From contig OZ024744.1 in NCBI GenBank assembly GCA_964016885.1, positions 125,364,001 to 125,428,000 of the forward strand: DNA of 64,000 nucleotides. The letters run 5' to 3'. This document shows positions 2,796-57,649 of the stretch, in pieces. The DNA comes from Eledone cirrhosa (taxonomy: Eukaryota). The notes below the pieces were generated by a model. That model made no database searches. It was not told the DNA's origin and saw only the letters and a program-made list of their open reading frames with translations. Numbering within the stretch: the first letter of the stretch is position 1; the number at the start of each line of letters is the position of its first letter. The translations under genes and the position numbers were made by a program.

Positions 2796-3117
2796 TCTGT
2801 CTCTCTCCCTGTCTCTCACTCTGCCTCTATCCCCCCTCTCTCTCTCTGTCTCTCCCCCCCCCCTCTCTCTCTCTAGTAGTAGAGAGAGAGAGAGATATAA
2901 ACGTATAACCCTAAACCTAACCCATCTCTCTCACTCTCTCTCTCCCCCTCTCACTCTCCCTCTACCCCTCCCTCTCTCTATTTCTCTCTCTCTCCAGTAG
3001 TAGAGAGAGACAAAGAGAGAGAGAGATATAAACGTATAACCCTAACCAAACCCTAACCCAACTCTAACCCAACCCTAACCCTAACCCCAACCCTAACTCT
3101 AACCTAACCCTAACCCA

Positions 3118-6054: not shown

Positions 6055-6920
6055 CCCTAACCCCAACCTCTTTGGTTTTCGTTTTCTCGACGGCTAGCCG
6101 CATTTCGTGATCCGCCTTTCGATTGCGCTTCCGTCGCGGCAAAAGAATTGCCTTTCCAGACCGCCGTCGCCCGACCGGACCCATGATAGAAGACGTTCGT
6201 TACCGTTGGAGCAACGCAAATTACTCCTCGGTTGACGCCAAAAACGAACGCCTTCCCGCCTCGCGCCGCCTTCTCCTCGCCGACCCTCGGCCTCGACGAT
6301 TAGCCACTTTCCGTCACAGCAGTAGATACGCGTCCGTCGTAATAGCCGTCATTTTAACGCAGGAGAAACGCCTAATTGCCCTGCACCGCGTTTGACGGCG
6401 ATCTACGACGGCGACGATGCGCGCACTCTTCCTTGCTGCGACGAAGGTTTCGGCTTTTCGTCGTGGACCCGGTCAGGTCATGCCGCTGACCTCGCGTTAC
6501 GGCGACGCGAGAAGACGTTCGTTACCGCTGGAGCAACGCAAATTACTCCTCGGTTGACGCCAAAAACGAACGCCTCGCGCCGCCGCTTCCTCCTCGGCCT
6601 CGACGATTAGCCGCTTTCCGTCACAGCAGTAGATACGCGTCCGTCGTAATAGCCGTCATTTTAACGCAGGAGAAACGCCTTGACGACGATATACGACGGG
6701 TCGACGACGCGCGCACTCTTTCTGCTGCGACGAAGGTTTTGGCTTTTCGTTGTGGACCCGGTCGGGTCATGCCTCTGACCTCGCGTTGCGTCGCCACCGC
6801 CGCGGCGGGCTTGGGTTTAGCCGTAGCTACCCTCGTTTTGCCAACGGCGACGCGAGAAGACGTTCGTTACCGCTGGAGCAACGCAAATTACTCCTCGGAT
6901 GAGGCCAAAAACGAACGCTG
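6055..6920 (+). repeat. Diverged orphan copy of the GC-rich rDNA-spacer-like repeat family; copy B at 49521-50387
   Basis: Contains gaagacgttcgttaccgctggagcaacgcaaattactcctcgg three times plus blocks shared with 18851-20090. Preceded by ccctaaccccaacc. No 18S sequence follows. Confidence 0.85.
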
Positions 6921-10787: not shown

Positions 10788-11029
10788 AAAGGCTCCAAAT
10801 CTAGCTGTCGTCTGTTCTACAGTGTGGATGTCATTCACTTCGCACAGAAGTTTTGTTCAAATTTATTGAGGAAATTTTGTGAGTTCAAACTTAATTTTGA
10901 TACAATTGTGTAGCTTGACCCTCCGTCTGAACTGTCAGGCGGTGGGTCAGCTCATCTTTACCCCTCCTAGAGGTGAAAAACCTGTTTTAAAAAAAATTTT
11001 ATGTAAAAAATTTCAATCGTCTAACAGAA

Positions 11030-12908
11030 ATGTTAAACGCAGCGAACGAAAATAGTGGTGGGGGGACAGCGGTAAGAGTTGTAAGCTCGCACGCTTTAGT
11101 CCTCCCTTCCTTCCCAACTAACGTCATAGAGAAGGAAGGAAAAATGAAAATAAAAACGGACGAATCTGCGGAGAAAAAATTAAATGTCGAAAACAACGAA
11201 GAAAAAAAATTTGAAAAATTGCATGACAATACTAATAACACAAACAAAGACACAACAAACAAAAAAATAACAGTTGAAAATAACATAATATCAGAAAACA
11301 AAGCAGACGACAAGACTTCATTTGCACAGAAAACAAAGAAATCTTTGACTTATATAGCGGAAAACATTTCAGATGTGGTACGAAGGATCACGGACGCAAA
11401 ACAATACATAAGTGAAGGTGAGAATGGTATTTTATTGGTAAAAATGCCTCAAGAATTCACGAAAGACATTGAAAGCCGAACGGTCAAGTTTCGGACCATC
11501 AACAACAGTACAAAAAAACCTGAACAGCCTTCTCAAGCAGATATCAAAACAGTACTCGCAGAAGTACTGAATGAAACAACTTTCATAAGAAAAGACAGAC
11601 TGTATGGAAGCCTAGCAATTATCATGAAGAACGAATCGGCGGCAAAAAAAATGTGCTTTGTCACCGATTCGTTCGAAAAATTTCACCTTTTATCCATCTT
11701 ATATGGGAAAAAAAACTCAACGCATATGGCTGGATGCAATGATGCCAGATGTGGACTACTGCTGGCTCATAGCTGGCTTCATCGATCCAGTGAATGACAA
11801 CGTGATTTCCATTGGGAAAACCACAGGCAATGCGTTCAGTGGAACAGGTATAGAGCTGGTAGTACAAATGAAGCCTGAACGCATCGCCCAAATACCCGAC
11901 AGAATCCTATTAGAGGACCACGGGTATATAAACATTAGCGTGGAGGGGAGAAGGCCGTCCTGCCATATCTGTGCAGGCAGAGGGCACCTGAAGGCCGCTT
12001 GTCCCCAGCTCAACAAAAAGAAAACCCTGCTACCAACACCAGCTCCACCACCACCACCACAACAGATAAACAAACAACAAAACTCAGTCCCACCCAACCC
12101 GTCCCTCAGTAACACCACAACACCACCACAACACAAACAGTCACAACACATTACCCCAAAACAAAATACAGGCCCACCCAACCTCTCACTCAATAAAACA
12201 ACACAACCACCGCAGACACAACACACAACACAGTCTAACATAGTGACATCCATCTCCCCCACAAAGAAAACCAACACGGAAACATTACCAGCAAACATAC
12301 CTCTTCCCTCCAACACTGAAGATAACCCAACGAATTCGGAGGAAGAAACGGAGTCCTTCAGACAGATTAAAAGGAAAAAAAGAAAACATGTGCAAAACAC
12401 ACAAGGACAAACAACCCCCACCCAAATCGCAACACAATCTAACAAAACAGAAAACACCCCTCCAGCAACAAACAAAACCAAACCTGCCCCTCCCCTCTTC
12501 GAAACACTCACACCATCGGAAAAAAAGACATTACACTATACTTACATCAACAGAAACAATAATAAATTAAATGAACTCATATACAATAATCCTTCGGTAC
12601 AAACCGAAGGTGTAAACTTTGTTTCATCAGAAAACCACCCACATTTAAAACTAATAAAAATCCCAATGAACCTCTACCAAAAACTAAAAAAGGATTTTAA
12701 GGAGGACGTAGGACCACCCTCTGTCAAACCCATAAACCGCGTCCTACTAAAAAGCTTTCCCCCTCCCCTTCCCCTCCCCAACACAACTCCAAACACCCCA
12801 ACCCCACCACACACCGACGACCCCACACCACCACAAGACACCCCTTCACCCAACACCCCCGACCCCATGGAAGTCGTGCAACCCGAACCCCGGGAAGCGG
12901 AAAGGTAG
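11030..12908 (+). CDS. LINE ORF1 (gag-like, CCHC zinc knuckle), split by a +1 frameshift near the A8 run at 11644-11651
   Basis: Overlapping ORFs 11030-11797 and 11658-12908. CHICAGRGHLKAAC fits CX2CX4HX4C, followed by a Pro/Thr/Asn-rich tail. Removing one A gives ...AAKKCALSPIRSKNF... Confidence 0.8.
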
Positions 12909-12941
12909 GTCTCTACACTCTCCTTTGGCTCTGCCGCCCAC

Positions 12942-15900
12942 ATGGATGTGTTAAGAGTAGGATGTTTGAATGCACGTGGCCTGGGCTCAACTTGGAAGCA
13001 AGCAAAGCTTCTAAATGACCTCAGGTCATGTAGTATAAATGTAATGGTTATCTGTGAGACTCGAATCAGCGTCATGCGGCAGCTGGCCCCCACCTTCGAT
13101 GACTTTGAGGTGCATGCATCTCTCTGTCAACCTGGAGGTGGGGGTGGGGTTGTCGTGCTGATGCAAAAACACCTGGGTCTTGCCGTACAGGTTGTGCACT
13201 CGGACCCGGAGGGTCGTTTGTTGGTGCTAGACGTTGGCAGTAGTGAAAGTGCGGCCTTGAGACTGGTCGCCGTCTACTCCCCTTTCGGAGCTGAACGGCC
13301 CGACTTCTTCCAGCGTTTGGAGACTTTTCTGGGAACGTCGCGTTCCCTGCTTCTAGCGGGGGATTGGAATGACATCCTAGATGCACGTTGGGACTATGCA
13401 GGAGCATGTCCTAATAGAGGGGGGTGTAACAGCCTCAAGGGGTTACTCGACCGTTTTAACTTGGTCGATAGATATCGACTAGATTTTCCAACTGTGCCTA
13501 CCTGGACTTGGAGAAACCACAGTGGTCAATCTAGATCGTACTTAGATAGATTCTTAGTTAGAAGTAAGGATAGGGACATATTAAGCTGTCCAGAAATGCG
13601 CACGGTTGGCTACACGGATCACAAATTAGTGACCTGCGTGGTCAATCTCGAGAAAACACATAGACAGGGTCCCGGTTACTGGAAACTTAATTTGTCTTTA
13701 CCGGCAAAAGAGACTTACAGAAACCGGATTAGCAGATTAGTTAAGGAGAGGTTGACGGGTGCAATCGTCAACAACCGATGGTGGGCATCTCTCAAAAGAG
13801 AGATTAGAACAGAATCAATAAGTTATAGCAAGATGTTAGCTGCCAATAGGAATAGAAACGAGAAAGAATTAACAGGTAAATTAGAAGAGGCAATCAAGAG
13901 CGAAGATGTGGCCAGAGTGCTGGCATCGAGGACGGCCTTGAACCAGTTTTTCGATGCAAAGCATGAAGGCTGCGTCATTCGAAGTAAAATACGTGCTCTA
14001 GGTAATGAGGGGGCCAAAGCCGTTGGATGGGCCCGCGTGACAGAAGCTAAAAGTGGAAATCGATCCACCATCCGGTCGTTGCAAGACGAAGATGGACGAG
14101 TGATCCGGGAGCCTAAGCAGATGTGCGAGGCCTTTCAAAAGCACTTTGCCCGATTGTTCGGGGGAGGCGAGGGTCCGGGCCGGGGCGTGGATTTCGGTCC
14201 ATACCTCGACGGCCTGCCGCGTCTCTCGAACAAAGAGGCAGAGTCCTGCGAGGGACCAATCTCGGCTGATGAGATCGGAGATGCGCTGAGCCAATGCAGC
14301 AGACGCAAATCTCCAGGTCTCGATGGTATACCTTACGAACTTTATTTAGCAATGCCGGTCTTCTTCTCCGAACTCCTCGAAGCGGTCTACTGCAATTGGC
14401 AGCAGAACGGGAGAATTCCTTGTTCTGTAGCCAAGGGCGTAGTCACGCTGGTGAGGAAGGACGAGAACAAGGGGGATAGTATAAATAATTTTCGGCCCAT
14501 AACCCTGCTAAACACAGAGTTAAAGATTTTGGCCAAGGTGTTAGCAAAGAGGTTGGCGCTTGTCGTGGGTGGCCTGGTGGGAGATGCGCAGACATGTGCT
14601 ATCCCATCCAGGTCCATTCACGATAACCTCCACCTCATGCGATACATCATAGAGAGGGTTGGCAACAAACCCGGCTTCGGTGGGGCCCTGATCAACTTGG
14701 ATCAGTCTAAGGCCTTCGATAGGGTCGACCATGGTTACCTGGATGCGGTGCTAGCGGCGGCTGGGTTCGGTCCTGTTTTCAGAGGCTGGATCACTGCCCT
14801 ACATAGCAACCACATCTGTTCTAGGATCAAGGTGAACGGCTACCTTTCGAAGCCGTTCGAAATCACACGATCCATTCGACAGGGGTGCCCTCTCTCCTCC
14901 CTTCTGTACGTATTGACTCTCGAGCCTTTACTGAGGAAGTTGGAGTTGTTGCAGGGTATCCCCCTGGAACCAGGATTGAGCAAAGCGGTGTCGGCCTACG
15001 CCGATGACGTAACAGTAATGGTATCAACCGACTCGGAGATCGAGGCGATCGGTACCTTACTGGAGGAGTACGAAAGGTTGTCAGGAGCGAAACTGAACCG
15101 GGAAAAATCCATCGGGCTGCAACTCGGAACGTGGAGAGGCAGACCGATGCCTCCCGATGGTGTCGTCGGACACTGGACGGAGGGCCCGGTAAAGTTGCTT
15201 GGGGTCTGGTTTGGACCGGACCTCCAGGTGGAAAAGAACTGGAACGAGGTTACGAACAAGGTGTTTGCACTAACCCAGAAATGGGCCAAGTGTAAGCTGT
15301 CCCTAAAAGGCCGGGCGGAGGTGGCGAACATTTATATAGCGTCCGTCACTTACTACCGCCTGACTGTCGTGCCTTGCCCTAAGGAAACACTCACCACCAT
15401 GGAACGCATGCTCTTCCAATTTCTTTGGAAGAAGCGTCCTCCTATGGTGAGAAGATCCATCTGCTGCCAACAACCTTCGAAAGGAGGGCTGGGGATGCCG
15501 TGGTTGATGATGCGTAGGCACGCATTAAGGCTACGGCACCTACAGGTATTCCTCACTGGTCAACCGGTGTGGGCTCCGTTCGTGAAACGAGCCTTTCCGA
15601 GACTCGTCTCACTCACCGAGCTACAATCCTGGGTCAAGCAAAGATCCGGAAAACTGGGAGACTGGCACACTGAGTGTGCTCAGGCGCTCAGGGCTCTCTG
15701 GCAAGCGGGCCGGGCCATCGGTGGAGAATCCACCTCATCATTCTATAGAGGGCTGGTGGCTAGCAGGGGCGATGACACCCTTGGAGAGTCGCTGGACATG
15801 GAAGAAGACGAACTGGCCAGCCTGTTCGGTAGGACTTTCGGCCCAGGACCAATGGACAACTTCCAGAAGTCACTGGCCTGGCAGTGCTACCGAGGGGCTC

Positions 15901-16379
15901 TACCCGTTCGAGAGAGGCTCTACAGACACGGGCGCCCGGGCAGGGATCCCTCAAAAAAGATTTGCCCTAGATGCGTGCGTCACGAAGAAACCGTGGCGCA
16001 CGCATTGGTGCAATGTCCGGGCGTGGCTGATCTGTGGGGCTACGCCGAACAACTGCTGTCGCGGGTGGCGCCGATTAAATTGACAGCCGAGTCCGTGATG
16101 ACAATCAAACCGCCTCCCCTCTTCACAAAGGAAGCAAAGGCGGTTTTTCTGTGCGTAATAGCCATGTTGAAAGAGGTTGTTTGGTGGACACGATTGAAAG
16201 GTCTGAGGTCAGGCAACTTCCTCTCTGGCCATAGTCTGGTCTACTTCTTCCGATATCACTTCGGAAGAAGGATAAGAATGGAGAGAGAGGTGCTTGGCCA
16301 CAGGCAGTTTTATGAAAGGTGGGTGATAGTGGCGAGAATGGCTCGTGTAAATGGGCCTTCTCTGTATACCATCCTGTAG
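12942..16379 (+). CDS. LINE ORF2: APE endonuclease + reverse transcriptase + C-terminal Cys/His finger (Tx1/L1 group), 1145 aa, intact
   Basis: LNARGL, ICETR, LAGDWN, SYLDRF and TDHK (APE); GPGYWKLN; KSPGLDG, FRPITLLN, LDQSKAFDRV, RQGCPLS and AYADDV (RT); GGLGMP; CPRC..EETVAHALVQC. Confidence 0.95.
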   Translation: MDVLRVGCLNARGLGSTWKQAKLLNDLRSCSINVMVICETRISVMRQLAPTFDDFEVHASLCQPGGGGGVVVLMQKHLGLAVQVVHSDPEGRLLVLDVGSSESAALRLVAVYSPFGAERPDFFQRLETFLGTSRSLLLAGDWNDILDARWDYAGACPNRGGCNSLKGLLDRFNLVDRYRLDFPTVPTWTWRNHSGQSRSYLDRFLVRSKDRDILSCPEMRTVGYTDHKLVTCVVNLEKTHRQGPGYWKLNLSLPAKETYRNRISRLVKERLTGAIVNNRWWASLKREIRTESISYSKMLAANRNRNEKELTGKLEEAIKSEDVARVLASRTALNQFFDAKHEGCVIRSKIRALGNEGAKAVGWARVTEAKSGNRSTIRSLQDEDGRVIREPKQMCEAFQKHFARLFGGGEGPGRGVDFGPYLDGLPRLSNKEAESCEGPISADEIGDALSQCSRRKSPGLDGIPYELYLAMPVFFSELLEAVYCNWQQNGRIPCSVAKGVVTLVRKDENKGDSINNFRPITLLNTELKILAKVLAKRLALVVGGLVGDAQTCAIPSRSIHDNLHLMRYIIERVGNKPGFGGALINLDQSKAFDRVDHGYLDAVLAAAGFGPVFRGWITALHSNHICSRIKVNGYLSKPFEITRSIRQGCPLSSLLYVLTLEPLLRKLELLQGIPLEPGLSKAVSAYADDVTVMVSTDSEIEAIGTLLEEYERLSGAKLNREKSIGLQLGTWRGRPMPPDGVVGHWTEGPVKLLGVWFGPDLQVEKNWNEVTNKVFALTQKWAKCKLSLKGRAEVANIYIASVTYYRLTVVPCPKETLTTMERMLFQFLWKKRPPMVRRSICCQQPSKGGLGMPWLMMRRHALRLRHLQVFLTGQPVWAPFVKRAFPRLVSLTELQSWVKQRSGKLGDWHTECAQALRALWQAGRAIGGESTSSFYRGLVASRGDDTLGESLDMEEDELASLFGRTFGPGPMDNFQKSLAWQCYRGALPVRERLYRHGRPGRDPSKKICPRCVRHEETVAHALVQCPGVADLWGYAEQLLSRVAPIKLTAESVMTIKPPPLFTKEAKAVFLCVIAMLKEVVWWTRLKGLRSGNFLSGHSLVYFFRYHFGRRIRMEREVLGHRQFYERWVIVARMARVNGPSLYTIL

Positions 16380-16869
16380 GTAAAGAAGTAAAGGAGAGGG
16401 GAGCACCTTCTCCATGTGCTCCCCGGGCAAAGGATTGCACACTTTTTCGGGGGTGTGTGCAACCCCCATCACGTCCCCTCCCTTTTGAGGTTATTTTCGA
16501 TTATTTTCATGTTACACCCTTTTTACTCGATTATATGTAAACTCCCCCTTTGTATTTGTCCTTTCTTTTTATGCCTTTATGGTAAATAAAGAAATCTATC
16601 TATCTATCAAAGGCTTCCTTCTCTGGAAAAAGATGATTTAATATTCACAACCATCTGTCTAATTGTTTTCTGATGAGAATAAAGTTAATCTTGCTTGTAT
16701 GTCTACCTGATCAAATGACTGGCTGATATCTTGAAGTCATTTACACCACAGAACTGTAGGAGTCTTGATCCCTCAAGCCATACCTCTAGCCATCATGTAC
16801 TCCAAAAGAGTCTCACCTTGGTGCTACTCAACATGTCCATTAAATTTAGCAGCAAGGATGCCCTCTTCT

Positions 16870-18700: not shown

Positions 18701-18763
18701 TGTTTTATTAGTTTTATTATAATAAAAATTGTGCTGTTAGTTTGCTTGCTATACCATCATGTA

Positions 18764-18850
18764 CCCTAACCCTAAACCTAACCCCAACTCCAACTCTGAC
18801 CCTAAACCTAACCCCAACCCCAACCCCAACCCTAACCCTAACCCTAACCC
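18764..18850 (+). repeat. Interstitial telomere-like (CCCTAA/CCCCAA)n; copy B at 56416-56514
   Basis: ccctaaccctaaacctaaccccaa...ccctaaccctaaccc directly abuts the 169-bp repeat. Confidence 0.85.
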
Positions 18851-19773
18851 ACGATAGAAGACGTTCGTTACCGCTGGAGCAACGCAAATTACTCCTCGGT
18901 TGACGCCAAAAACGAACGCCTTCTCGACGGCTAGCCGCATTTCGTGATCCGCCTTTCGATTGCGCTTCCGTCGCGGAAAAAGAATTGCCTTTATAGGCCG
19001 CCGCCGCCCGACCGGACCCACGATAGAAGACGTTCGTTACCGCTGGAGCAACGCAAATTACTCCTCGGTTGACGCCAAAAACGAACGCCTTCTCGACGGC
19101 TAGCCGCATTTCGTGATCCGCCTTTCGATTGCGCTTCCGTCGCGGAAAAAGAATTGCCTTTATAGGCCGCCGCCGCCCGACCGGACCCACGATAGAAGAC
19201 GTTCGTTACCGCTGGAGCAACGCAAATTACTCCTCGGTTGACGCCAAAAACGAACGCCTTCTCGACGGCTAGCCGCATTTCGTGATCCGCCTTTCGATTG
19301 CGCTTCCGTCGCGGAAAAAGAATTGCCTTTATAGGCCGCCGCCGCCCGACCGGACCCACGATAGAAGACGTTCGTTACCGCTGGAGCAACGCAAATTACT
19401 CCTCGGTTGACGCCAAAAACGAACGCCTTCTCGACGGCTAGCCGCATTTCGTGATCCGCCTTTCGATTGCGCTTCCGTCGCGGAAAAAGAATTGCCTTTA
19501 TAGGCCGCCGCCGCCGCCCGACCGGACCCACGATAGAAGACGTTCGTTACCGCTGGAGCAACGCAAATTACTCCTCGGTTGACGCCAAAAACGAACGCCT
19601 TCTCGACGGCTAGCCGCATTTCGTGATCCGCCTTTCGATTGCGCTTCCGTCGCGGAAAAAGAATTGCCTTTATAGGCCGCCGCCGCCGCCCGACCGGACC
19701 CACGATAGAAGACGTTCGTTACCGCTGGAGCAACGCAAATTACTCCTCGGTTGACGCCAAAAACGAACGCCTT
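18851..19773 (+). repeat. 169/172-bp GC-rich tandem repeat (5 full units + 1 partial), rDNA spacer-like
   Basis: Units start at 18851, 19020, 19189, 19358, 19530 and 19702. The length difference is one extra GCC. The array ends ~360 bp upstream of an 18S 5' end. Confidence 0.92.
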
Positions 19774-20131
19774 CCGGTTCGGGCGACGTAAAAGTCTGTA
19801 GCCTTTTCGCCGATCCTCGACGATTATCCGCCTTCCGAACAACCGCCTTTCCGCCGTCACAGCAGTAGGTACTCGTCCGTCGTAATAGCCGTCATTTTAA
19901 TGCAGGAGAAACGCCTAAATGCACTGCGATTGACGACGATCTACGACGCGCTTACTCTTCCTTGCTGCGACGAAGGTTTCGTTCGGCTTTTCGTCGTGGA
20001 CCCGGTCAGGTCATGCCTCTGATCTCGCGTTGCGTCGTTACCGCTGGAGCAACGCAAATTACTCCTCGTTTAACGCCAACATCGAACGCGCTTCGGTTCT
20101 CGGTCGTCGTTGTTTTGTTTCGTGCGGAAGA

Positions 20132-20315
20132 TACCTGGGTGATCCTGCCAGTAGTCATATGCTTGTCTCAAAGCTTAAGCCATGCAAGTGGAAGTTCATG
20201 CCGTAAACGAAAATGGTGAAACCGCGAATGGCTCAGGAACCGGATCTAATCCTCGGGACCGTATTCCTCACCGCGAGGAGAGGATAACTGTGGCAATTCT
20301 AGAGCTAATACATGC
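20132..20315 (+). pseudogene. 18S rRNA 5'-terminal fragment
   Basis: tacctgggtgatcctgccagtagtcatatgcttgtctcaaagcttaagccatgca, gaaaccgcgaatggctca and ggataactgtggcaattctagagctaatacatgc match the universal eukaryotic 18S 5' end. Collinearity stops at ~20315. Confidence 0.93.
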
Positions 20316-20320
20316 AATTG

Positions 20321-23300
20321 AGATCGGAGAGGGAGCGATCCGTCTGCTTGATTCCGATAACGAACGAGACATTCGTATCCGAAAGAACGTTTGTCTGGAA
20401 ACTGGTGCAGTCAGTGAGTCGAAAAAAAAATATCTCGGTGGTAGTAGCAAATATTCGAACGAGACATTCGTATGCGAAAGAACGTTTGTCGGTGGTAGTA
20501 GCAAATATTCGAACGAGACATTCGTATGCGAAAGAACGTTTGTCTGGAAGTGGCGATCCATGCCCGGTGGATAGTTGGTTCCGGGTTTTACTATGATTGT
20601 TGCAAAACAGAAACTTAAAGGGATTGACAGAATTTGCGATTCCGGAGAGGGGGCGATCCGTCTGCTTGATTCCGATAACGAACGAGACATTCGTATCCGA
20701 AAGAACGTTTGTCTGGAAACTGGTGAGTCAGTGAGTCGAAAAAAAAAATATCTCGGTGGTAGTAGCAAATATTCGAACGAGACATTCGTATGCGAAAGAA
20801 CGTTTGTCGGTGGTAGTAGCAAATATTCGAACGAGACATTCGTATGCGAAAGAACGTTTGTCGGTGGTAGTAGCAAATATTCGAACGAGACATTCGTATG
20901 CGAAAGAACGTTTGTCTGGAAGTGGCGATCCATGCCCGGTGGATAGTTGGTTCCGGGTTTTACTATGATTGTTGCAAAACAGAAACTTAAAGGAATTGAC
21001 AGAATTTGCGATTCCGGAGAGGGGGCGATCCGTCTGCTTGATTCCGATAACGAACGAGACATTCGTATCCGAAAGAACGTTTGTCTGGAAACTGGTGAGT
21101 CAGTGAGTCGAAAAAAAAATATCTCGGTGGTAGTAGCAAATATTCGTATGCGAAAGAAAAGATCTCGGTGGTAGTAGCAAATATTCGAACGAGACATTCG
21201 TAGGCGAAAGAAAAATATCTCGGTGGTAGTAGCAAATATTCGAACGAGACATTCGTATTCGAAAGAACGTTTGTCTGGAAGTTGCGATCCATGCCCGGTG
21301 GATAGTTGGTTCCGGGCTTTACTATGATTGTTGCAAAACAGAAACTTAAAGGGATTGACAGAATTTGCGATTCCGGAGAGGGGGCGATCCGTCTGCTTGA
21401 TTTCGATAACGAACGAGACATTCGTATCCGAAAGAACGTTTGTCTGGAAACTGGTGAGTCAGTGAGTCGAAAAAAAAAATATCTCGGTGGTAGTAGCAAA
21501 TATTCGAACGAGACATTCGTATGCGAAAGAACGTTTGTCGGTGGTAGTAGCAAATATTCGAACGAGACATTCGTATGCGAAAGAACGTTTGTCTGGAAGT
21601 GGCGATCCATGCCCGGTGGATAGTTGGTTCCGGGTTTTACTATGATTGTTGCAAAACAGAAACTTAAAGGGATTGACAGAATTTGCGATTCCGGAGAGGG
21701 GGCGATCCGTCTGCTTGATTCCGATAACGAACGAGACATTCGTATCCGAAAGAACGTTTGTCTGGAAACTGGTGAGTCAGTGAGTCGAAAAAAAAAATAT
21801 CTCGGTGGTAGTAGCAAATATTCGAACGAGACATTCGTATGCGAAAGAAAAATATCTCGGTGGTAGTAGCAAATATTCGAACGAGACATTCGTATGCGAA
21901 AGAACGTTTGTCTGGAAGTGGCGATCCATGCCCGGTGGATAGTTGGTTCCGGGTTTTACTATGATTGTTGCAAAACAGAAACTTAAAGGGATTGACAGAA
22001 TTTGCGATTCCGGAGAGGGGGCGATCCGTCTGCTTGATTCCGATAACGAACGAGACATTCGTATCCGAAAGAACGTTTGTCTGGAAACTGGTGAGTCAGT
22101 GAGTCGAAAAAAAAATATCTCGGTGGTAGTAGCAAATATTCGAACGAGACATTCGTATGCGAAAGAAAAATATCTCGGTGGTAGTAGCAAATATTCGAAC
22201 GAGACATTCGTATGCGAAAGAACGTTTGTCTGGAAGTGGCGATCCATGCCCGGTGGATAGTTGGTTCCGGGTTTTACTATGATTGTTGCAAAACAGAAAC
22301 TTAAAGGGATTGACAGAATTTGCGATTACGGAGAGGGGGCGATCCGTCTGCTTGATTCCGATAACGAACGAGACATTCGTATCCGAAAGAACGTTTGTCT
22401 GGAAACTGGTGAGTCAGTGAGTCGAAAAAAAAATATCTCGGTGGTAGTGGCAAATATTCGAACGAGACATTCGTATGCGAAAGAACGTTTGTCGGTGGTA
22501 GTAGCAAATATTCGAACGAGACATTCGTATGCGAAAGAACGTTTGTCTGGAAGTGGCGATCCATGCCCGGTGGATAGTTGGTTCCGGGTTTTACTATGAT
22601 TGTTGCAAAACAGAAACTTAAAGGGATTGACAGAATTTGCGATTACGGAGAGGGGGCGATCCGTCTGCTTGATTCCGATAACGAACGAGACATTCGTATC
22701 CGAAAGAACGTTTGTCTGGAAACTGGTGAGTCAGTGAGTCGAAAAAAAAATATCTCGGTGGTAGTAGCAAATATTCGAACGAGACATTCGTATGCGAAAG
22801 AACGTTTGTCGGTGGTAGTAGCAAATATTCGAACGAGACATTCGTATGCGAAAGAACGTTTGTCTGGAAGTGGCGATCCATGCCCGGTGGATAGTTGGTT
22901 CCGGGTTTTACTATGATTGTTGCAAAACAGAAACTTAAAGGGATTGACAGAATTTGCGATTACGGAGAGGGGGCGATCCGTCTGCTTGATTCCGATAACG
23001 AACGAGACATTCGTATCCGAAAGAACGTTTGTCTGGAAACTGGTGAGTCAGTGAGTCGAAAAAAAAATATCTCGGTGGTAGTAGCAAATATTCGAACGAG
23101 ACATTCGTATGCGAAAGAACGTTTGTCGGTGGTAGTAGCAAATATTCGAACGAGACATTCGTATGTGAAAGAACGTTTGTCTGGAAGTGGCGATCCATGC
23201 CCGGTGGATAGTTGGTTCCGGGTTTTACTATGATTGTTGCAAAACAGAAACTTAAAGGGATTGACAGAATTTGCGATTCCGGAGAGGGGGCGATCCGTCT

Positions 23301-26300
23301 GCTTGATTCCGATAACGAACGAGACATTCGTATCCGAAAGAACGTTTGTCTGGAAACTGGTGAGTCGAAAAAAAAATATCTCGGTGGTAGTAGCAAATAT
23401 TCGTATGCGAAAGAAAAGATCTCGGTGGTAGTAGCAAATATTCGAACGAGACATTCGTAGGCGAAAGAAAAATATCTCGGTGGTAGTAGCAAATATTCGA
23501 ACGAGACATTCGTATGCGAAAGAACGTTTGTCGGTGGTAGTAGCAAATATTCGAACGAGACATTCGTATGCGAAAGAACGTTTGTCTGGAAGTGGCGATC
23601 CATGCCCGGTGGATAGTTGGTTCCGGGTTTTACTATGATTGTTGCAAAACAGAAACTTAAAGGGATTGACAGAATTTGCGATTCCGGAGAGGGGGCGATC
23701 CGTCTGCTTGATTCCGATAACGAACGAGACATTCGTATCCGAAAGAACGTTTGTCTGGAAACTGGTGAGTCAGTGAGTCGAAAAAAAAAATATCTCGGTG
23801 GTAGTAGCAAATATTCGAACGAGACATTCGTATGCGAAAGAACGTTTGTCGGTGGTAGTAGCAAATATTCGAACGAGACATTCGTATGCGAAAGAACGTT
23901 TGTCGGTGGTAGTAGCAAATATTCGAACGAGACATTCGTAGGCGAAAGAAAAATATCTCGGTGGTAGTAGCAAATATTCGAACGAGACATTCGTATTCGA
24001 AAGAACGTTTGTCTGGAAGTTGCGATCCATGCCCGGTGGATAGTTGGTTCCGGGTTTTACTATGATTGTTGCAAAACAGAAACTTAAAGGGATTGACAGA
24101 ATTTGCGATTCCGGAGAGGGGGCGATCCGTCTGCTTGATTCCGATAACGAACGAGACATTCGTATCCGAAAGAACGTTTGTCTGGAAACTGGTGAGTCAG
24201 TGAGTCGAAAAAAAAAATATCTCGGTGGTAGTAGCAAATATTCGAACGAGACATTCGTATGCGAAAGAACGTTTGTCGGTGGTAGTAGCAAATATTCGAA
24301 CGAGACATTCGTATGCGAAAGAACGTTTGTCGGTGGTAGTAGCAAATATTCGAACGAGACATTCGTATGCGAAAGAACGTTTGTCTGGAAGTGGCGATCC
24401 ATGCCCGGTGGATAGTTGGTTCCGGGTTTTACTATGATTGTTGCAAAACAGAAACTTAAAGGGATTGACAGAATTTGCGATTCCGGAGAGAGGGCGATCC
24501 GTCTGCTTGATTCCGATAACGAACGAGACATTCGTATCCGAAAGAACGTTTGTCTGGAAACTGGTGAGTCAGTGAGTCGAAAAAAAAATATCTCGGTGGT
24601 AGTAGCAAATATTCGTATGCGAAAGAAAAGATCTCGGTGGTAGTAGCAAATATTCGAACGAGACATTCGTAGGCGAAAGAAAAATATCTCGGTGGTAGTA
24701 GCAAATATTCGAACGAGACATTCGTATGCGAAAGAACGTTTGTCGGTGGTAGTAGCAAATATTCGAACGAGACATTCGTATGCGAAAGAACGTTTGTCGG
24801 TGGTAGTAGCAAATATTCGAACGAGACATTCGTATGCGAAAGAACGTTTGTCTGGAAGTGGCGATCCATGCTCGGTGGATAGTTGGTTCCGGGTTTTACT
24901 ATGATTGTTGCAAAACAGAAACTTAAAGGGATTGACAGAATTTGCGATTCCGGAGAGGGGGCGATCCGTCTGCTTGATTCCGATAACGAACGAGACATTC
25001 GTATCCGAAAGAACGTTTGTCTGGAAACTGGTGAGTCAGTGAGTCGAAAAAAAAATATCTCGGTGGTAGTAGCAAATATTCGAACGAGACATTCGTATGC
25101 GAAAGAACGTTTGTCGGTGGTAGTAGCAAATATTCGAACGAGACATTCGTATGCGAAAGAACGTTTGTCTGGAAGTGGCGATCCATGCCCGGTGGATAGT
25201 TGGTTCCGGGTTTTACTATGATTGTTGCAAAACAGAAACTTAAAGGGATTGACAGAATTTGCGATTCCGGAGAGGGGGCGATCCGTCTGCTTGATTCCGA
25301 TAACGAACGAGACATTCGTATCCGAAAGAACGTTTGTCTGGAAACTGGTGAGTCAGTGAGTCGAAAAAAAAATATCTCGGTGGTAGTAGCAAATATTCGA
25401 ACGAGACATTCGTATGCGAAAGAACGTTTGTCGGTGGTAGTAGCAAATATTCGAACGAGACATTCGTATGCGAAAGAACGTTTGTCTGGAAGTGGCGATC
25501 CATGCCCGGTAGATAGTTGGTTCCGGGTTTTACTATGATTGTTGCAAAACAAAAACTTAAAGGGATTGACAGAATTTGCGATTCCGGAGAGAGGGCGATC
25601 CGTCTGCTTGATTCCGATAACGAACGAGACATTCGTATCCGAAAGAACGTTTGTCTGGAAACTGGTGAGTCAGTGAGTCGAAAAAAAAAATATCTCGGTG
25701 GTAGTAGCAAATATTCGAACGAGACATTCGTATGCGAAAGAAAAATATCTCGGTGGTAGTAGCAAATATTCGAACGAGACATTCGTATGCGAAAGAACGT
25801 TTGTCTGGAAGTGGCGATCCATGCCCGGTGGATAGTTGGTTCCGGGTTTTACTATGATTGTTGCAAAACAGAAACTTAAAGGGATTGACAGAATTTGCGA
25901 TTCCGGAGAGGGGGCGATCCGTCTGCTTGATTCCGATAACGAACGAGACATTCGTATCCGAAAGAACGTTTGTCTGGAAACTGGTGAGTCAGTGAGTCGA
26001 AAAAAAAAATATCTCGGTGGTAGTAGCAAATATTCGAACGAGACATTCGTATGCGAAAGAACGTTTGTCGGTGGTAGTAGCAAATATTCGAACGAGACAT
26101 TCGTATGCGAAAGAACGTTTGTCGGTGGTAGTAGCAAATATTCGAACGAGACATTCGTATGCGAAAGAACGTTTGTCTGGAAGTGGCGATCCATGCCCGG
26201 TGGATAGTTGGTTCCGGGTTTTACTATGATTGTTGCAAAACAGAAACTTAAAGGGATTGACAGAATTTGCGATTCCGGAGAGAGGGCGATCCGTCTGCTT

Positions 26301-28200
26301 GATTCCGATAACGAACGAGACATTCGTATCCGAGAGAACGTTTGTCTGGAAACTGGTGAGTCAGTGAGTCGAAAAAAAAATATCTCGGTGGTAGTAGCAA
26401 ATATTCGAACGAGACATTCGTATGCGAAAGAAAATTATCTCGGTGGTAGTAGCAAATATTCGAACGAGACATTCGTATGCGAAAGAACGTTTGTCTGGAA
26501 GTGGCGATCCATGCCCGGTGGATAGTTGGTTCCGGGTTTTACTATGATTGTTGCAAAACAGAAACTTAAAGGGATTGACAGAATTTGCCATTCCGGAGAG
26601 GGGGCGATCCGTCTGCTTGATTCCGATAACGAACGAGACATTCGTATCCGAAATAACGTTTGTCTGGAAACTGGTGAGTCAGTGAGTCGAAAAAAAAATA
26701 TCTCGGTGGTAGTAGCAAATATTCGAACGAGACATTCGTATGCGAAAGAACGTTTGTCTGGAAGTGGCGATCCATGCTCGGTGGATAGTTGGTTCCGGGT
26801 TTTACTATGATTGTTGCAAAACAGAAACTTAAAGGGATTGACAGAATTTGCGATTCCGGAGAGGGGGCGATCCGTCTGCTTGATTCCGATAACGAACGAG
26901 ACATTCGTATCCGAAAGAACGTTTGTCTGGAAACTGGTGAGTCAGTGAGTCGAAAAAAAAATATCTCGGTGGTAGTAGCAAATATTCGTATGCGAAAGAA
27001 AAGATCTCGGTGGTAGTAGCAAATATTCGAACGAGACATTCGTAGGCGAAAGAAAAATATCTCGGTGGTAGTAGCAAATATTCGAACGAGACATTCGTAT
27101 TCGAAAGAACGTTTGTCTGGAAGTTGCGATCCATGCCCGGTGGATAGTTGGTTCCGGGCTTTACTATGATTGTTGCAAAACAGAAACTTAAAGGGATTGA
27201 CAGAATTTGCGATTCCGGAGAGGGGGCGATCCGTCTGCTTGATTTCGATAACGAACGAGACATTCGTATCCGAAAGAACGTTTGTCTGGAAACTGGTGAG
27301 TCAGTGAGTCGAAAAAAAAAATATCTCGGTGGTAGTAGCAAATATTCGAACGAGACATTCGTATGCGAAAGAACGTTTGTCGGTGGTAGTAGCAAATATT
27401 CGAACGAGACATTCGTATGCGAAAGAACGTTTGTCGGTGGTAGTAGCAAATATTCGAACGAGACATTCGTATGCGAAAGAACGTTTGTCTGGAAGTGGCG
27501 ATCCATGCCCGGTGGATAGTTGGTTCCGGGTTTTACTATGATTGTTGCAAAACAGAAACTTAAAGGGATTGACAGAATTTGCGATTCCAGAGAGAGGGCG
27601 ATCCGTCTGCTTGATTCCGATAACGAACGAGACATTCGTATCCGAAAGAACGTTTGTCTGGAAACTGGTGAGTCAGTGAGTCGAAAAAAAAATATCTCGG
27701 TGGTAGTAGCAAATATTCGAACGAGACATTCGTATGCGAAAGAACGTTTGTCTGGAAGTGGCGATCCATGCTCGGTGGATAGTTGGTTCCGGGTTTTACT
27801 ATGATTGTTGCAAAACAGAAACTTAAAGGGATTGACAGAATTTGCGATTCCGGAGAGGGGGCGATCCGTCTGCTTGATTCCGATAACGAACGAGACATTC
27901 GTATCCGAAAGAACGTTTGTCTGGAAACTGGTGAGTCAGTGAGTCGAAAAAAAAATATCTCGGTGGTAGTAGCAAATATTCGTATGCGAAAGAAAAGATC
28001 TCGGTGGTAGTAGCAAATATTCGAACGAGACATTCGTATGCGAAAGAAAAATATCTCGGTGGTAGTAGCAAATATTCGAACGAGACATTCGTATTCGAAA
28101 GAACGTTTGTCTGGAAGTTGCGATCCATGCCCGGTGGATAGTTGGTTCCGGGCTTTACTATGATTGTTGCAAAACAGAAACTTAAAGGAATTGACAGAAT
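20321..28200 (+). repeat. rRNA-mosaic satellite: 23 units of 263 bp plus a variable number of 54/55/41-bp subrepeats
   Basis: Unit spacings run from 263 to 467 bp (mode 317-319). Contains 18S-like gattccggagaggg, gattccgataacgaacgagac, attcgtat, gcgaaag and ttgcaaa..gaaacttaaagg(a/g)attgac, plus 28S-like atctcggtggtagtagcaaatattcgaacgaga. Confidence 0.9.
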
Positions 28201-28240
28201 TTTCGAATCGACATCAACTCGGCTACGGCTATCCCGTCGA

Positions 28241-28574
28241 GTACGAGAGTATCGCGGGATCAGAGCAACGGTTTGCTAGGCTGCCTCTGAGCGATAACGG
28301 CTGAACGCCTCCTCTAAGCCGGAACCCTAGCCGGACCCGAGTTGTTTTTCGACAAGCGTCTCGACCTTCTTAAGGCCCATGCCTTAGTTTGGCGATTGCC
28401 GTCCGTTCGCCGACGGCGGCAGCGTCAGCGGAAATGCCATTCTGTGACGACTACGACGATTCGTCGTCGTCGTCGTCCATTCGATTTCCTGAAAGAGATA
28501 GAGACTAAAGTGATCAAATTGTTCGGAGTTACGTGCTTAGTAGAGCAGCTACCACACTGCAATCTATTGAGAGT
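28241..28574 (+). pseudogene. 28S rRNA 3'-terminal relic
   Basis: gtacgagag, ggctgaacgcct(cct)ctaagccggaaccc, ccattctgtgacgact and agtagagcagctaccacactgcaatctattgagagt correspond in order to conserved 28S 3' motifs (GACTGAACGCCTCTAAGTCAGAATCC; AGCAGAGCAGC..CTGCGATCTATTGAAAGT). Confidence 0.75.
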
Positions 28575-29309
28575 TTTCTGACGAACGATACAATCCGCCC
28601 ACGTGGCGCCAGAAAGGGAGAAGAAAAGAAAAGTTAGACGCCGCCGATCGATCGGTTCGTTGTTTTACGTGTACACAGCTTGTGTGTGTGTCTGTATGTG
28701 ATACAAGCCGCCTATCCGTCTTCCAAGTAAGTTTTGTGTGTAGACTGCGGAAAGAAATCCAATCCGCCGTCTAGGCGGTTCTGCCGCCGACCCATACTTT
28801 TGCGAGTCGCTCCCGGGAAAGACAGGCGGCAAGACGGCGTGTATACACGACGCCTTCCGTCTTCCGCCTCGAACCCGGGCAAACGTTCCTTTATTCGTCC
28901 ACGCCTTCCCGCTTCGATCGCGAGAAAGTAATCAATCTGTTTTGTGTGTGTGTCTGTGTGTGATACAAATTTGTTTTCTTAATTTGATAACCATGAATTG
29001 TTTCAACACCGGCCCTTTTAAGGGCCACTTATATTTTCAATAATCAGTTTAAATGGGTTGCACCGTAGCCACTTGGTAATACACTGCAAATCTCCCGTCA
29101 ATCTATGAAGGTTTTGTAGTAGATTAGATCAAAACACAATCAGCAAGACAGTAATGGAATGAATAATATAAACATTTGTTTATAATTAAAGCCTTAAGAT
29201 GTCCCTCCCTCCCTCCCTTCCTTCCTTCCTTCCTTCCTTCCTTACGATATACACTTTAATAACATTGAAACTTATTTAATAAGTTTAAATTTTAAACACT
29301 TTTTATTCA

Positions 29310-29731: not shown

Positions 29732-29999
29732 GGTCTGAGTTCAAATCACGCCGAGGAGGTTAACTTTGCCTTTCATCCTTACGGGGACGGTCGGAAAACG
29801 AACCATTACCGGTTCGCTTTCGAAGCGGGTTTCCGAAAACAGCGCTTCTCTCGACCGGGCCCGTCGTCCGCTCGGCGGTGGTTTTCATCGTCCCAGGCAC
29901 GGCTAACAGGCGGAGACGGGACAAACGCGCGTGTTCCTTTTTTTATCAGCCGCAGCGCCGTTCGTATATATGCTTAGGTTGTTTTTTTTTTAAATATCC

Positions 30000-30230
30000 T
30001 AAGTTAAGTTGGGGCTAAGTTAAGTTGGGGCTAAGTTAAGTTGAGGTTAAGTTGAGTTGGGGTTAAGTTAAGTGGGGGTTAAGTTAAGCTGGGGTTAAGT
30101 TAAGTTGAGGTTAAGTTAAGTTGGGGTTAAGTCAAGTTGGGGTTAAGTTAAGTTGGGGTTAAGTTAGGTTGGGGTTAAGTTAGGTTGGGGTTAAGTTAAG
30201 TTGGGGTTAAGTTAGGTTGCGGTTAAGTTA
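30000..30230 (+). repeat. 16-bp G-rich tandem repeat (ttaagttaagttgggg); copy B at 62850-63080
   Basis: About 14 units visible directly. Confidence 0.92.
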
Positions 30231-33200
30231 CATTCGCCGCCGGACTTCAGCTTCCTCATTTAGCATGGGCAGTTTTTCTTGAAAATCACACCACACACAG
30301 CAAATGTGTGTCCGCACATGTACCAGTAATTACAGATCGATTCCGGTGAAAATTCACTGAAAACGGGCCATCCGGCCCTGTGCGTCGATCGTGGGCCGGC
30401 CGGATGTTGACGGATCGATGTGTAATTAGAAGTACATGTGCGGACACTCATTGGCTGTGCGTGGTATGCATTTCAGCAAGATATCTCCGTAACATCAAGA
30501 GTTATGGCTGTGGAGGCACACCTAGTCAAACGTAAACAAGGTCTGGAGCGTTTACGCTTCGCGATTTTGTTTACGTTTGACTAGGTGTGCCTCCACAGCC
30601 ACAACTCTTGATTTTACGGAGATATCTTGCTGAAATGCATACCGCGCACAGCCAATGAGTGTCCGCACATGTACTTCTAATTACACATCGATCCGTCAAC
30701 ATCCGGCCGGCCCACGATCGACGCACAGGGCCGGATGGCCCGTTTTCAGTGAAATTTCACCGGAATCGATCTGTAATTACTGGTACATGTGCGGAGACAC
30801 ATTTGCTGTGTGTGGTGTGATTTTCAAGAAAAACTGCCCATGCTAAATGAGGAAGCTGAAGTCCGCCGGCGAATGGTGTGCTTCGAAGAAAACTAATTCG
30901 AAAATGACCGTTTGCAGGCGGAGTAACCTTTTCGATCGTGGGCCAGCCGCCCGTGGTGGGATCCATCTGTAATTACTGGTACATGTGCGGACATACATTT
31001 GCTGTGTGTGGTGTGATTTTCAAGAAGAACTGCCCATGCTAAATGAGGAAGCTGAAGTCCGCCGGCGAATGGTGTGCTTCGAAGAAAACTAATTCGAAAA
31101 TGACCGTTTGCAGGCGGAGTAACCTTTTCGATCGTGGGCCAGCCGCCCGTGGTGGGATCCATCTGTAATTACTGGTACATGTGCGGACATACATTTGCTG
31201 TGTGTGGTGTGATTTTCAAGAAGAACTGCCCATGCTAAATGAGGAAGCTGAAGTCCGCCGGCGAATGGTGTGCTTCGAAGAAAACTAATTCGAAAATGAC
31301 CGTTTGCAGGCGGGGTAACCTTTTCAATCGTGGGCCAGCCGCCCGTGGTGGGATCCATCTGTAATTACTGGTACATGTGCGGACACACATTTGCTGTGTG
31401 TGGTGTGATTTTCGAGAAAGACTGCCCATGCTAAATGAGGAAGCTGAAGTCCGCCGGCGAATGGTGTGCTTCGAAGAAAACTAATTCGAAAATGACTATT
31501 TGCCGGCGGAATCACCTTTTCGGTCCTGGTCCGGCCGGATCTTGCCGGATCGATCGGAAATTTGTGGACCATGTTCGGAAGACCATTGTGCATGTGTGGT
31601 GAAAAAAATTTGTGTCGAAATCTTCTCGGAAAATAACGGATCGCCGGCGGAGATTGCCATTTCGATCGTGGGCCGGCCGGATCTTGTCGGATCGATTCGG
31701 ACATATGTGCATCGTGTTCGCAAGGCCCTTGTCTATGTGTGGTGTGATTTTCATAAAGAAATTCCGAAAAACCCAGTTTTAAATCTGATTTCGCCAAAGA
31801 ATTTTGGCTATCAGATCGGGTTGAAAGGTATGGTTTCAGGTCGATCTGAAAGTCTAAAATGGGATTCACTCGGTTAGCTAACTTTTGATATATCGGAGAT
31901 ATCTTTCTGAAAATCACACCACACACTCCCAATGAGTGTCTGCACATGTACCAGTAATTACAGATGGATCCCACCACGGGCGGCCGGCCCACGATCGAAA
32001 AGGTTACTCCGAAGCACACCATTCGCCGGCGGAATTCATTTAGCATGGGCAGTTTTTCTCGAAAATCACACCACACACAGCCAATGAGTGTCCGCACATG
32101 TACCAGTAATTACAGATGGATCCCACCACGGGCGGCTGGCCCACGATCGAAAAGGTTACTCCGCCTGCAAACGGTCATTTTCGAATTCGTTTTCTTCGAA
32201 GCACACGATTCGCCGGCGGACTTCAGCTGCCTCATTTAGCATGGGCAGTTTTTCTCGAAACTCACACCACACACAGCAAATGTGTGTCCGCACATGTACC
32301 AGTAATTACAGATCGATTCCGGTGAAAATTCACTGAAAACGGGCCATTCGGCCCTGTGCGTCGATCGTGGGCCGGCCGGATGTTGACGGATCGATGTGTA
32401 ATTAGAAGTACATGTGCGGACACTCATTGGCTGTGCGTGGTATGCATTTCAGCAAGATATCTCCGTAACATCAAGAGTTATGGCTGTGGAGGCACACCTA
32501 GTCAAACGTAAACAAGCTCTGGAGCGTATACGCTTCGCGATTTTGTTTACGTTTGACTAGGTGTGCCTCCACAGCCACAACTCTTGATGTTACGGAGATA
32601 TCTTGCTGAAATGCATACCACGCACAGCCAATGAGTGTCCGCACATGTACTTCTAATTACACATCGATCCGTCAACATCCGGCCGGCCCACGATCGACGC
32701 ACAGGGCCGGATGGCCCGTTTGCAGTGAATTTTCACCGGAATCGATCTGTAATTACTGGTACATGTGCGGACACACATTTGCTGTGTGTGGTGTGATTTT
32801 CACGAAAAACTGCCCATGCTAAATGAGGAAGCTGAAGTCCGCCGGCGAATGGTGTGCTTCGAAGAAAACTAATTCGAAAATGACCGTTTGCAGGCGGAGT
32901 AACCTTTTCGATCGTGGGCCAGCCGCCCGTGGTGGGATACATCTGTAATTACTGGTACATGTGCGGACACACATTTGCTGTGTGTGGTGTGATTTTCGAG
33001 AAAGACTGCCCATGCTAAATGAGGAAGCTGAAGTCCGCCGGCGAATGGTGTGCTTCGAAGAAAACTAATTCGAAAATGACTATTTGCCGGCGGAATCACC
33101 TTTTCGGTCCTGGTCCGGCCGGATCTTGCCGGATCGATCGGAAATTTGTGGACCATGTTCGGAAGGCCATTGTGCATGTGTGGTGAAAAAAATTTGTGTC

Positions 33201-33870
33201 GAAATCTTCTCGGAAAATAACGGATCGCCGGCGGAGATTGCCATTTCGATCGTGGGCCGGCCGGATCTTGTCGGATCGATTCGGACATATGTGCATCGTG
33301 TTCGCAAGGCCCTTGTCTATGTGTGGTGTGATTTTCATAAAGAAATTCCGAAAAACCCAGTTTTAAATCTGATTTCGCCAAAGAATTTTGGCTATCAGAT
33401 CGGGTTGAAAGGTATGGTTTCAGGTCGATCTGAAAGTCTAAAATGGAATTCACTCGGTTAGCTAACTTTTGATATATCGGAGATATCTTTCTGAAAATCA
33501 CACCACACACTCCCAATGAGTGTCTGCACATGTACCAGTAATTACAGATGGATCCCACCACGGGCGGCCGGCCCACGATCGAAAAGGTTACTCCGAAGCA
33601 CACCATTCGCCGGCGGACTTCATTTAGCATGGGCAGTTTTTCTTGAAGATCACACCACACACAGCCAATCAGTGTCCGCACATGTACCAGTAATTACAGA
33701 TGGATCCCACTACGGGCGGCTGGCCCACGATCGAAAAGGTTACTCCGCCTGCAAACGGTCATTTTCGAATTCGTTTTCTTCGAAGCACACCATTCGCCGG
33801 CGGACTTCAGCTGCCTCATTTAGCATGGGCAGCTTTTCTCGAAAATCACACCACACACAGCCAATGAGTT
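30231..33870. repeat. Fold-back satellite: 196-bp monomers in alternating inverted blocks, palindrome centres at 30553 and 32529
   Basis: Mirror-image ORFs 30260-30451(-)/30655-30846(+) and 32236-32427(-)/32631-32822(+). Period of 196 bp (30893 to 31089). A linker repeats at an offset of 1584 (1976 minus 2x196). Confidence 0.92.
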
Positions 33871-42958: not shown

Positions 42959-43054
42959 CACGTGTGTGTGTGTATATATATATATATACACACACACGTG
43001 TGTATATATATATATATACATATATATATATACACACACACGTGTGTGTGTATA

Positions 43055-56352: not shown

Positions 56353-56514
56353 TGTTTTATTAGTTTTATTATAATAAAAATTGTGCTGTTAGTTTGCTTG
56401 CTATACCATCATGTACCCTAACCCTAAACCTAACCCCAACTCCAACTCTGACCCTAAACCTAACCCCAACCCCAACCCCAACCCTAACCCTAACCCTAAC
56501 CCTAACCCTAACCC

Positions 56515-57644: not shown

Positions 57645-57649
57645 AATTG

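Follow-up and report, generated by a model that had tools for sequence, protein, structure and literature searches.

In tomato, a satellite derived from ribosomal DNA (rDNA) has a sub-repeat of the intergenic spacer (IGS) as its monomer, the coding DNA having been eliminated, according to the available text of PMC2679016. In human, the degraded rDNA orphons described as 'rDNA-like signal' are single displaced units that are degrading, as presented in the accessible part of PMC5381670. Further, short interspersed nuclear elements (SINEs) of the SINE28 type are derived from ribosomal RNA (rRNA) and contain 28S fragments (PMC10946416, accessible portion). The window analysed here is a 64,000-nt stretch of Eledone cirrhosa DNA (C28:125364001-125428000; C-numbers denote contigs of the 3.0-Gb assembly, and L-numbers denote stretches fetched from it), and it contains a scrambled rDNA cassette at 18763-28968. 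The sequence comparisons show that this cassette is real and host-derived, and indicate that it is probably a promoterless and most likely inert dead rDNA copy, which turned into a satellite and was amplified as a passenger in a macrosatellite unit of ~38 kb.

The cassette has the general features of an rDNA-derived satellite: its monomers come from host rDNA (six of the seven modules of the main monomer, together with a 169-bp repeat), it lies in tandem outside the rDNA loci, and its repeats are homogenised and diverging. The monomers derive from the 5′ external transcribed spacer (5′ETS), 18S, internal transcribed spacer 1 (ITS1) and 28S, and not from the IGS as in the plant cases. Like the tomato satellite portrayed in the available text, it would have arisen from dead rDNA units by recombination, sub-repeat amplification and loss of most rRNA coding sequence; in contrast, its main monomer is a mosaic of 18S, ITS1 and 28S between kept gene ends, nested in the ~38-kb unit (PMC2679016). 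The human orphons, in the accessible description, are likewise displaced rDNA decaying into short strings away from functional arrays and would stand at an earlier step, whereas the strings of the cassette are out of order and have been amplified twice, as monomer and as macro-unit (PMC5381670). An earlier note on this DNA, made from its sequence alone, set the cassette apart from dispersed rRNA-derived SINEs, and that distinction holds: the cassette shares 28S fragments with SINE28-type elements as far as these are described, but it is tandem and 5-20 kb long, belongs to a single array family on seven contigs, and has neither poly(A) nor target duplication (PMC10946416). A literature search with little subscription literature and without supplements returned no report of such an rRNA mosaic or of a cephalopod rDNA satellite.

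A cassette built from host rDNA

True rDNA units were located through their 5.8S (29 matches listed from 40 scored candidates) and were fetched from C12, C4 and C25. One C12 unit, annotated with Rfam, has complete 18S, 5.8S and 28S genes and a 1.2-kb insert in its 28S, and all rRNA positions are counted on this unit. The true 28S of the host contains the 8-base H88 break word, which is specific to incirrate octopuses in the accessible text of PMC13321053. The functional rDNA array is probably collapsed in the assembly.

Alignment to the host unit and Tandem Repeats Finder (TRF) resolve the cassette into a telomere-like repeat, 5′ETS-derived 169/172-bp repeats, a deleted 5′ETS, 18S nt 1-190, 23 mosaic monomers, the 28S 3′ end and an IGS tail. 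Every feature of the cassette lies on the plus strand. The telomere-like run, the 169/172-bp repeats, the ETS-like DNA and the rRNA-fragment array described in the earlier note are thereby confirmed, as are the sense orientation of the parts, the rDNA order of the outer ones and the conversion of the core into an rRNA-mosaic satellite.

The left border is a degenerate TAACCC-type run at 18763-18850 (TRF period 6, 14.7 copies). With TAACCC as the telomere repeat unit, and by comparison with the host ETS, the rDNA piece and this run share 4 bp at their join, in the register and orientation that telomere addition would give. No telomere-like run was found in 294 kb of other sampled DNA; within the macro-unit a second one lies at 3037-3116, without adjoining rDNA. 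Because of this second run, telomerase healing at the 5′ border is only a lead; the overlap and the orientation fit an insertion by telomerase, but the run is degenerate. Short interstitial telomeric sequences at repaired breaks, as described in the available part of PMC7215372, likewise place a telomere-like run at a rearrangement junction, and they differ from this case in that the run of the cassette is degenerate and has a counterpart at 3037-3116 without rDNA.

The tandem repeats that follow (18847-19774; TRF, 5.5 copies, 99% matches) are 93-95% identical to L019:7291-7470 and L075:1137-1317, which identifies their source as a 5′ETS sub-repeat at about +380 to +560 of the predicted transcription start, and as neither IGS nor promoter; in the ten loci sampled, some of them truncated where the locus ends, there are at least 3-7 repeats per cassette. 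Next comes a 5′ETS remnant at 19775-20037, which aligns to L019:7820-8205 with 255 matches and 22 mismatches (about 91% of aligned bases) and carries deletions of 12, 70, 5 and 9 bp and smaller ones, every gap being on the cassette side. The upstream region, when compared with the authentic IGS and 5′ETS, thus matches the 5′ETS both in its repeats and in its remnant. At 20035-20131, a duplicated 60-bp piece of the ETS repeat precedes the last ~45 bp of the 5′ETS and bridges an ETS deletion of ~830 bp (20035-20094 against L019:7767-7826, 90%; 20088-20138 against L019:9030-9080, 90%).

The 18S portion, nt 1-190, occupies 20132-20322 with about 95% identity to the host gene (Rfam and host alignment). 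The start proposed earlier at 20132 is correct in position, but it is not exact: one mismatch falls at 18S position 8, and 20088-20325 differs from the host unit by 11 mismatches and two 2-bp gaps. The Rfam small-subunit match at 20135-20773 (E 1.6e-8) is under the gathering score, and the large-subunit match exceeds it in copy 2 only (61068-61450). The mosaic satellite fills 20325-28199 with 23 monomers, recovered as module strings and as TRF periods of 54, 263, 317 and 372. The 28S relic is present as proposed, though with wider limits than 28241-28574: it extends over 28211-28631, including the first ~30 nt beyond the gene, with deletions of 26, 33 and 15 bp and about 9% mismatches (about 91% of aligned bases identical). 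Of the region 28575-28930, which the note had offered for comparison with the 3′ETS, the part to 28631 belongs to this relic, and the tail at 28661-28968 matches spacer and is IGS-derived. This tail is closest to an older spacer variant found in an orphon on C3, comes from spacer 0.9-2.5 kb beyond the 28S end, and ends ahead of the first spacer-promoter motif. By eye, neither end of the cassette (18756-18763, 28968-28980) has poly(A), a 3′ tail or a target duplication, which decay could have erased.

No rRNA is therefore complete in the cassette: 18S is present as nt 1-190 and 28S as its final ~400 nt, and the rest are scraps of 12-60 bp. The second cassette in the window (56415-61822) has 3.4 ETS repeats and 10 monomers, and its unique parts are 99.8% identical to those of the first. 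An origin from foreign, parasite rDNA is ruled out by the matches to host ETS, ITS1 and IGS. Open reading frames (ORFs) in the array are repeat read-throughs, as judged from the ORF list with no further search made, and no tRNA genes were found.

The earlier proposal that the promoter region was kept does not survive this comparison. In true units, a 40-bp block that closes with the TATATAGGG word is found about 2.16 kb ahead of 18S and again in every ~710-bp spacer repeat; the predicted motif falls in the region of C12:25066911. The placement of the block, its recurrence and an arthropod consensus from the literature mark it as a predicted RNA polymerase I (Pol I) promoter, in a layout of gene and spacer promoters. 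The arthropod start consensus is quoted in the accessible text of PMC2590618, and by eye the word agrees with it at seven of the eight positions after the start; TATA and GGGG boxes are named as general core-promoter features in the available part of PMC6730533. The true spacer consists of repeats of ~600-900 bp (mostly ~710; L019:485-6904, L021, L024, L028, L032), in each of which the predicted promoter recurs almost unchanged, and is, on this prediction, a clear spacer-promoter array in mollusc-type rDNA.

The stretch of the window closest to the predicted promoter block still departs from it at 18 of its 40 bases; three shuffled sequences gave 17, 18 and 17 mismatches, and a further 19 loci from the array family gave 18-22. 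The exact promoter core occurs at 20 places in the assembly and at none on the seven cassette contigs (C28, C18, C178, C398, C760, C1185 and C1204). Relative to the predicted transcription start, the cassette begins about 215 or 480 bp further downstream; there are two values because two ETS sub-repeats fit its first 80 bp equally well. Its other end falls short of the first spacer copy of the promoter by 294 bp on the C12 unit and by ~90 bp on the C3 orphon. Since the tandem repeats lie downstream of the predicted start and are 5′ETS-derived, they do not represent a retained promoter region, and the cassette is promoterless with respect to the predicted promoter, which is placed by position.

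The mosaic monomer and its amplification

The monomer follows one grammar, a-b-c-d-(e-c)n-f-g, with a length of 263 bp plus ~54 bp for each added e-c, and this grammar is common to all ten decomposed copies on five contigs, with occasional missed or dropped modules. It contains three 18S scraps, two 28S scraps, one 19-mer of ITS1 and module d, and all the assigned pieces are sense. Module sources were tested by alignment to the host unit against 40 shuffled controls each, and six modules (a, b, c, e, f and g) score over all of their controls. In the first monomer, modules a (18S nt 575-592, here cut to nt 581-592) and b (18S nt 2042-2080) occupy 20325-20370 and are joined through a shared 5-mer. 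Module c (20372-20390) is an exact 19-mer, ITS1 nt 289-307, with a score of 38 against a control maximum of 24. The earlier statement that no ITS or 5.8S is recognisable is thus wrong for ITS1, which recurs as module c of every monomer, and right for 5.8S, of which matching to the host unit found no piece in the cassette. Module d (20391-20431) is about 40 bp long with an A-run, and its best host match is no better than shuffles; 5.8S and 28S were rejected as its source because neither scores above them. Module e (20432-20465) is a 34-bp exact match to 28S nt 2083-2116. Modules b and e terminate in an identical 10-mer, which accounts for c coming after both. Modules f (28S nt ~1392-1413) and g (18S nt ~1843-1900) lie at 20548-20632, with scores of 32 and 67 against control maxima of 27 and 26; an extra 18S piece after g (nt 1976-1986) was considered and is unneeded, as point changes account for it. 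By eye, a few untemplated bases are present at some of the module joins.

The edges of the arrays differ from their interiors. The rRNA form of module a is restricted to first monomers (eight of eight 5′ edges, no internal ones), the rRNA form of g is found at ten of ten 3′ edges and once internally, and internal monomers are fixed for changes away from rRNA; 22 of 23 f-g cores are within 2 mismatches of the commonest. Because only edge monomers keep the ancestral rRNA bases, this pattern points to a single founder that was duplicated in tandem and whose interior copies were then homogenised.

The exact join between 18S and mosaic occurs at 59 places (43 on C28, 7 on C178, 5 on C1185, and one each on C18, C398, C760 and C1204), and the join between telomere-like run and ETS at 61 places in the genome. 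There are thus 59-61 cassettes in total, all on these seven contigs, with 43-44 in the C28 array; these counts are lower bounds, since the left end of that array is a scaffold gap. The C28 array spans 1.73 Mb with a median spacing of 37.8 kb (range 28-91 kb, 43 copies), in agreement with the units of ~33-40 kb suggested earlier. Its 43 mosaic arrays are about 0.7-19 kb long (median 5.8 kb) and sum to about 256 kb. For the g-a join, one variant has 476 exact occurrences, 100 of them listed. The C28 array region has no promoter core and no 5.8S match among those listed, and is therefore a tandem array outside the canonical rDNA loci.

Unique parts of the cassette differ between sampled copies by 0-2 substitutions or an 8-bp gap. 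The cassette and its neighbours share 98-100% identity at the 59-61 places, which makes the last amplification recent. Moreover, neighbouring non-rDNA was amplified equally, including debris of long interspersed nuclear elements (LINEs), microsatellites and 16-bp and 196-bp satellites, together with two further rDNA scraps. The flanks of the macro-unit are common to all sampled cassettes, and individual dispersed insertion sites were not seen. A search for a large spacer shared by the macro-unit and the true rDNA arrays recovered only scattered repeats in common. Among the ten decomposed copies, one is without the 18S start and one without the 28S end. In the C18 cassette (L036-L037), the 28S end is lost and the macro-unit restarts. 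At L092 (C28:125599001-125609000), an ETS remnant is joined directly to module e at an A-run, and there are 11 ETS repeats.

Origin of the cassette and the competing explanations

The history that we favour begins with host rDNA, the source of every assigned part at 0-9% divergence. One unit would have left the rDNA array and lost its promoter at a break inside the 5′ETS, which the telomere-like run capped. The founder may have read 18S-a-b-c-d-e-c-f-g-28S, with five joins forward, the e-to-c join backward through the shared 10-mer and the f-to-g join backward, and its ~300-bp mosaic likely formed at the DNA level by deletions and two backward jumps. The monomer appears, from the edge pattern, to have been duplicated in tandem and then homogenised, and the cassette, with neighbouring LINE debris and satellites, to have multiplied recently to 59-61 places. 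In its present state it would be neither a Pol I template nor under a selected function.

Other displaced rDNA of this genome offers a comparison. Scattered rDNA units with internal deletions are found on C2, C3, C4, C7 and C10 (20 stretches examined), with 24 clean deletions in seven aligned segments, and the orphon on C7 has lost the promoter stretch as well. Since most of these orphons keep the promoter and upstream spacer, they would have moved as DNA. Deletions with microhomology of at least 3 bp make up one of four in the cassette and six of 24 in the orphons, against 6% at random, though two of those six reflect differing repeat units and the edges of the alignments are noisy. Whole or partial rDNA units, several with a promoter and about 2-7% diverged, are also spread in large number over C1, C2, C3, C4, C7, C10 and C25 (L053-L072), and isolated ~140-bp 5.8S copies lie on C1 and C4.

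Several observations weigh against the favoured history. Five orphons contain 18 insertions of at least 12 bp, none of which maps well to distant rDNA, so that scrambling was not seen elsewhere. No monomer intermediates were found in a search of junction patterns only, with 100 of 476 places listed. Module d has no source in the host unit (1 of 40 and 7 of 40 controls reach its best matches), and the f-to-g join goes backward without clear homology. There is no excess of CpG decay (8 of 245 CpG positions, 12 of 352 others), hence no sign of methylation-driven silencing. The promoter whose loss is invoked is predicted rather than mapped, and a minus-strand TATA-like word is present in every sampled cassette and in no true unit sampled, an observation made post hoc. 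Finally, the six assigned pieces are all sense and a possible read-through transcript of Pol I would cover both ends of the cassette; an origin from RNA would account for these two features equally.

The last point leads to a founder made by reverse transcription, in which an R2- or LINE-type enzyme jumped between rRNA or pre-rRNA fragments and pasted the chimera, later amplification being as in the favoured history. R2 reverse transcriptase is capable of template jumping. Besides the sense orientation, this account would explain a 5′ end inside the predicted transcript, a 3′ end short of the first spacer promoter and the few untemplated bases at joins; in addition, 10 of the 12 loci checked have an element at the R2 site of 28S, and the window has intact-looking LINE ORFs. 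We consider it unlikely, as poly(A) and target duplications are missing at the ends, the source of the tail is spacer lying 0.9-2.5 kb beyond the 28S gene, and DNA-borne orphons with promoter and upstream spacer erode by deletion likewise. Moreover, the donor segments are not less paired than random windows of the unit (P 0.62) and not clearly lower in GC (P 0.12), which gives no support to a selective retention of unpaired or AT-rich rRNA segments; a purine excess in the donors (P 0.02) was noted post hoc and comes from one test among three.

The sequence of the cassette gives no sign of selection: there is no stable fold, internal changes lead away from rRNA, array length is free and ends are lost in single copies. 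In particular, the monomer folds with z = -0.70 relative to 100 shuffles, 19 of which fold as well, and a structured monomer RNA was rejected. A present-day array transcribed by RNA polymerase II read-through or from a new promoter, giving a long rRNA-like RNA or small RNAs with an action on rDNA or on nucleolar factors, is very unlikely, even though C28 alone carries about 256 kb of sense rRNA scraps and five of the six donors lie in rRNA coding sequence. Also in its favour is the minus-strand TATA-like word, which follows a GC run at 18990-18998 and in each 169-bp ETS repeat and arose from two derived substitutions, but that word faces the telomere-like repeat and is directed away from the array, and its choice was post hoc. 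The histone stem-loop downstream is a dispersed repeat (129 places) rather than a 3′ signal dedicated to the array. The combination of both ideas, a monomer that is a fossil of template jumping among pre-rRNA fragments and a ~60-copy array that is now transcribed into rRNA-matching small or long RNA acting on the many dispersed insertion-bearing rDNA units or nucleolar factors, would be more improbable still. If the array were transcribed, it would be a candidate regulator of rDNA.

A mini-rDNA that kept a Pol I promoter and is transcribed as a nucleolar parasite or decoy is highly improbable. Its outer parts are sense and in rDNA order, the ETS/18S boundary and the 28S end are kept, and the unit is tandemly amplified like an rDNA array; but the predicted promoter and all spacer copies are absent, and most of the 5′ETS is deleted. 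It is barely conceivable that the array is false and was put together from chimeric rDNA reads of the library or the assembly. A scaffold gap does bound the C28 array on the left, and further copies lie on five small unplaced contigs, but ten copies on five contigs obey a single fixed grammar with lengths, variants and edge states particular to each copy, the relics are 5-9% diverged from true rDNA, and LINE insertions are copy-specific, one of them with a clean empty site.

Taken as dead DNA, the cassette would be a record of satellite birth from rDNA, with the parent unit, the founder state at the edges, the expansion of the monomer and the megabase amplification readable in one genome. It suggests that rRNA coding scraps, besides spacer repeats, are able to seed a satellite. 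Further, ~256 kb of conserved 18S and 28S words outside true rDNA could mislead rDNA fluorescence in situ hybridization, copy-number estimates and the mapping of rRNA fragments.

Other features of the macro-unit and of host rDNA

Two separate rDNA relics, both on the plus strand, accompany the cassette in the macro-unit. The one at 6083-6918 (second copy 49549-50384; host-unit match) is 5′ETS-derived and promoterless, and follows a short telomere-like stretch. The other, at 29795-30000 (second copy 62645-62850), is a 28S fragment (nt ~691-895) with 87-93% identity to the host gene. It is followed by a 16-bp telomere-like satellite at 30000-30230, which also fills all stretches sampled over about 90 kb by the left gap of the array (C28:124.60-124.69 Mb; L078-L080, L094, L099); a direct adjacency of the array to that block was discarded, as the join is the scaffold gap. 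At 30231-33866, 196-bp repeats form long inverted blocks. On C18 (6.75-6.85 Mb; L090, L091, L100, L101), beside the lone C18 cassette, they form an array of higher-order units of ~1.8 kb in every sampled stretch over about 100 kb.

An Rfam Histone3 stem-loop match (36.6 bits) lies at 29006-29050 and at 61848-61892, 70 bp after the cassette. The motif recurs at 129 places, many of them inverted pairs 69 bp apart and concentrated on C18 (100 of the 129 listed), and was rejected as a 3′-end signal of the cassette.

At the 28S R2 site, the insert of ~1.2 kb is present in 10 of the 12 loci checked (e.g. L020:6971-8207, C12) and matched no Rfam family; the single uninserted site in the assembly is at C12:25175781.

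A full-length LINE, which we take to be L1/Tx1-like, occupies 10788-16593 in a (TCTA)n tract with a short duplication; it has an intact endonuclease-reverse transcriptase ORF of 1145 aa, and the second macro-unit has the clean empty site. On the minus strand at 43054-46180, a LINE with an endonuclease-reverse transcriptase ORF of 857 aa lies in a (TA)n tract, and occurs in the second macro-unit only.

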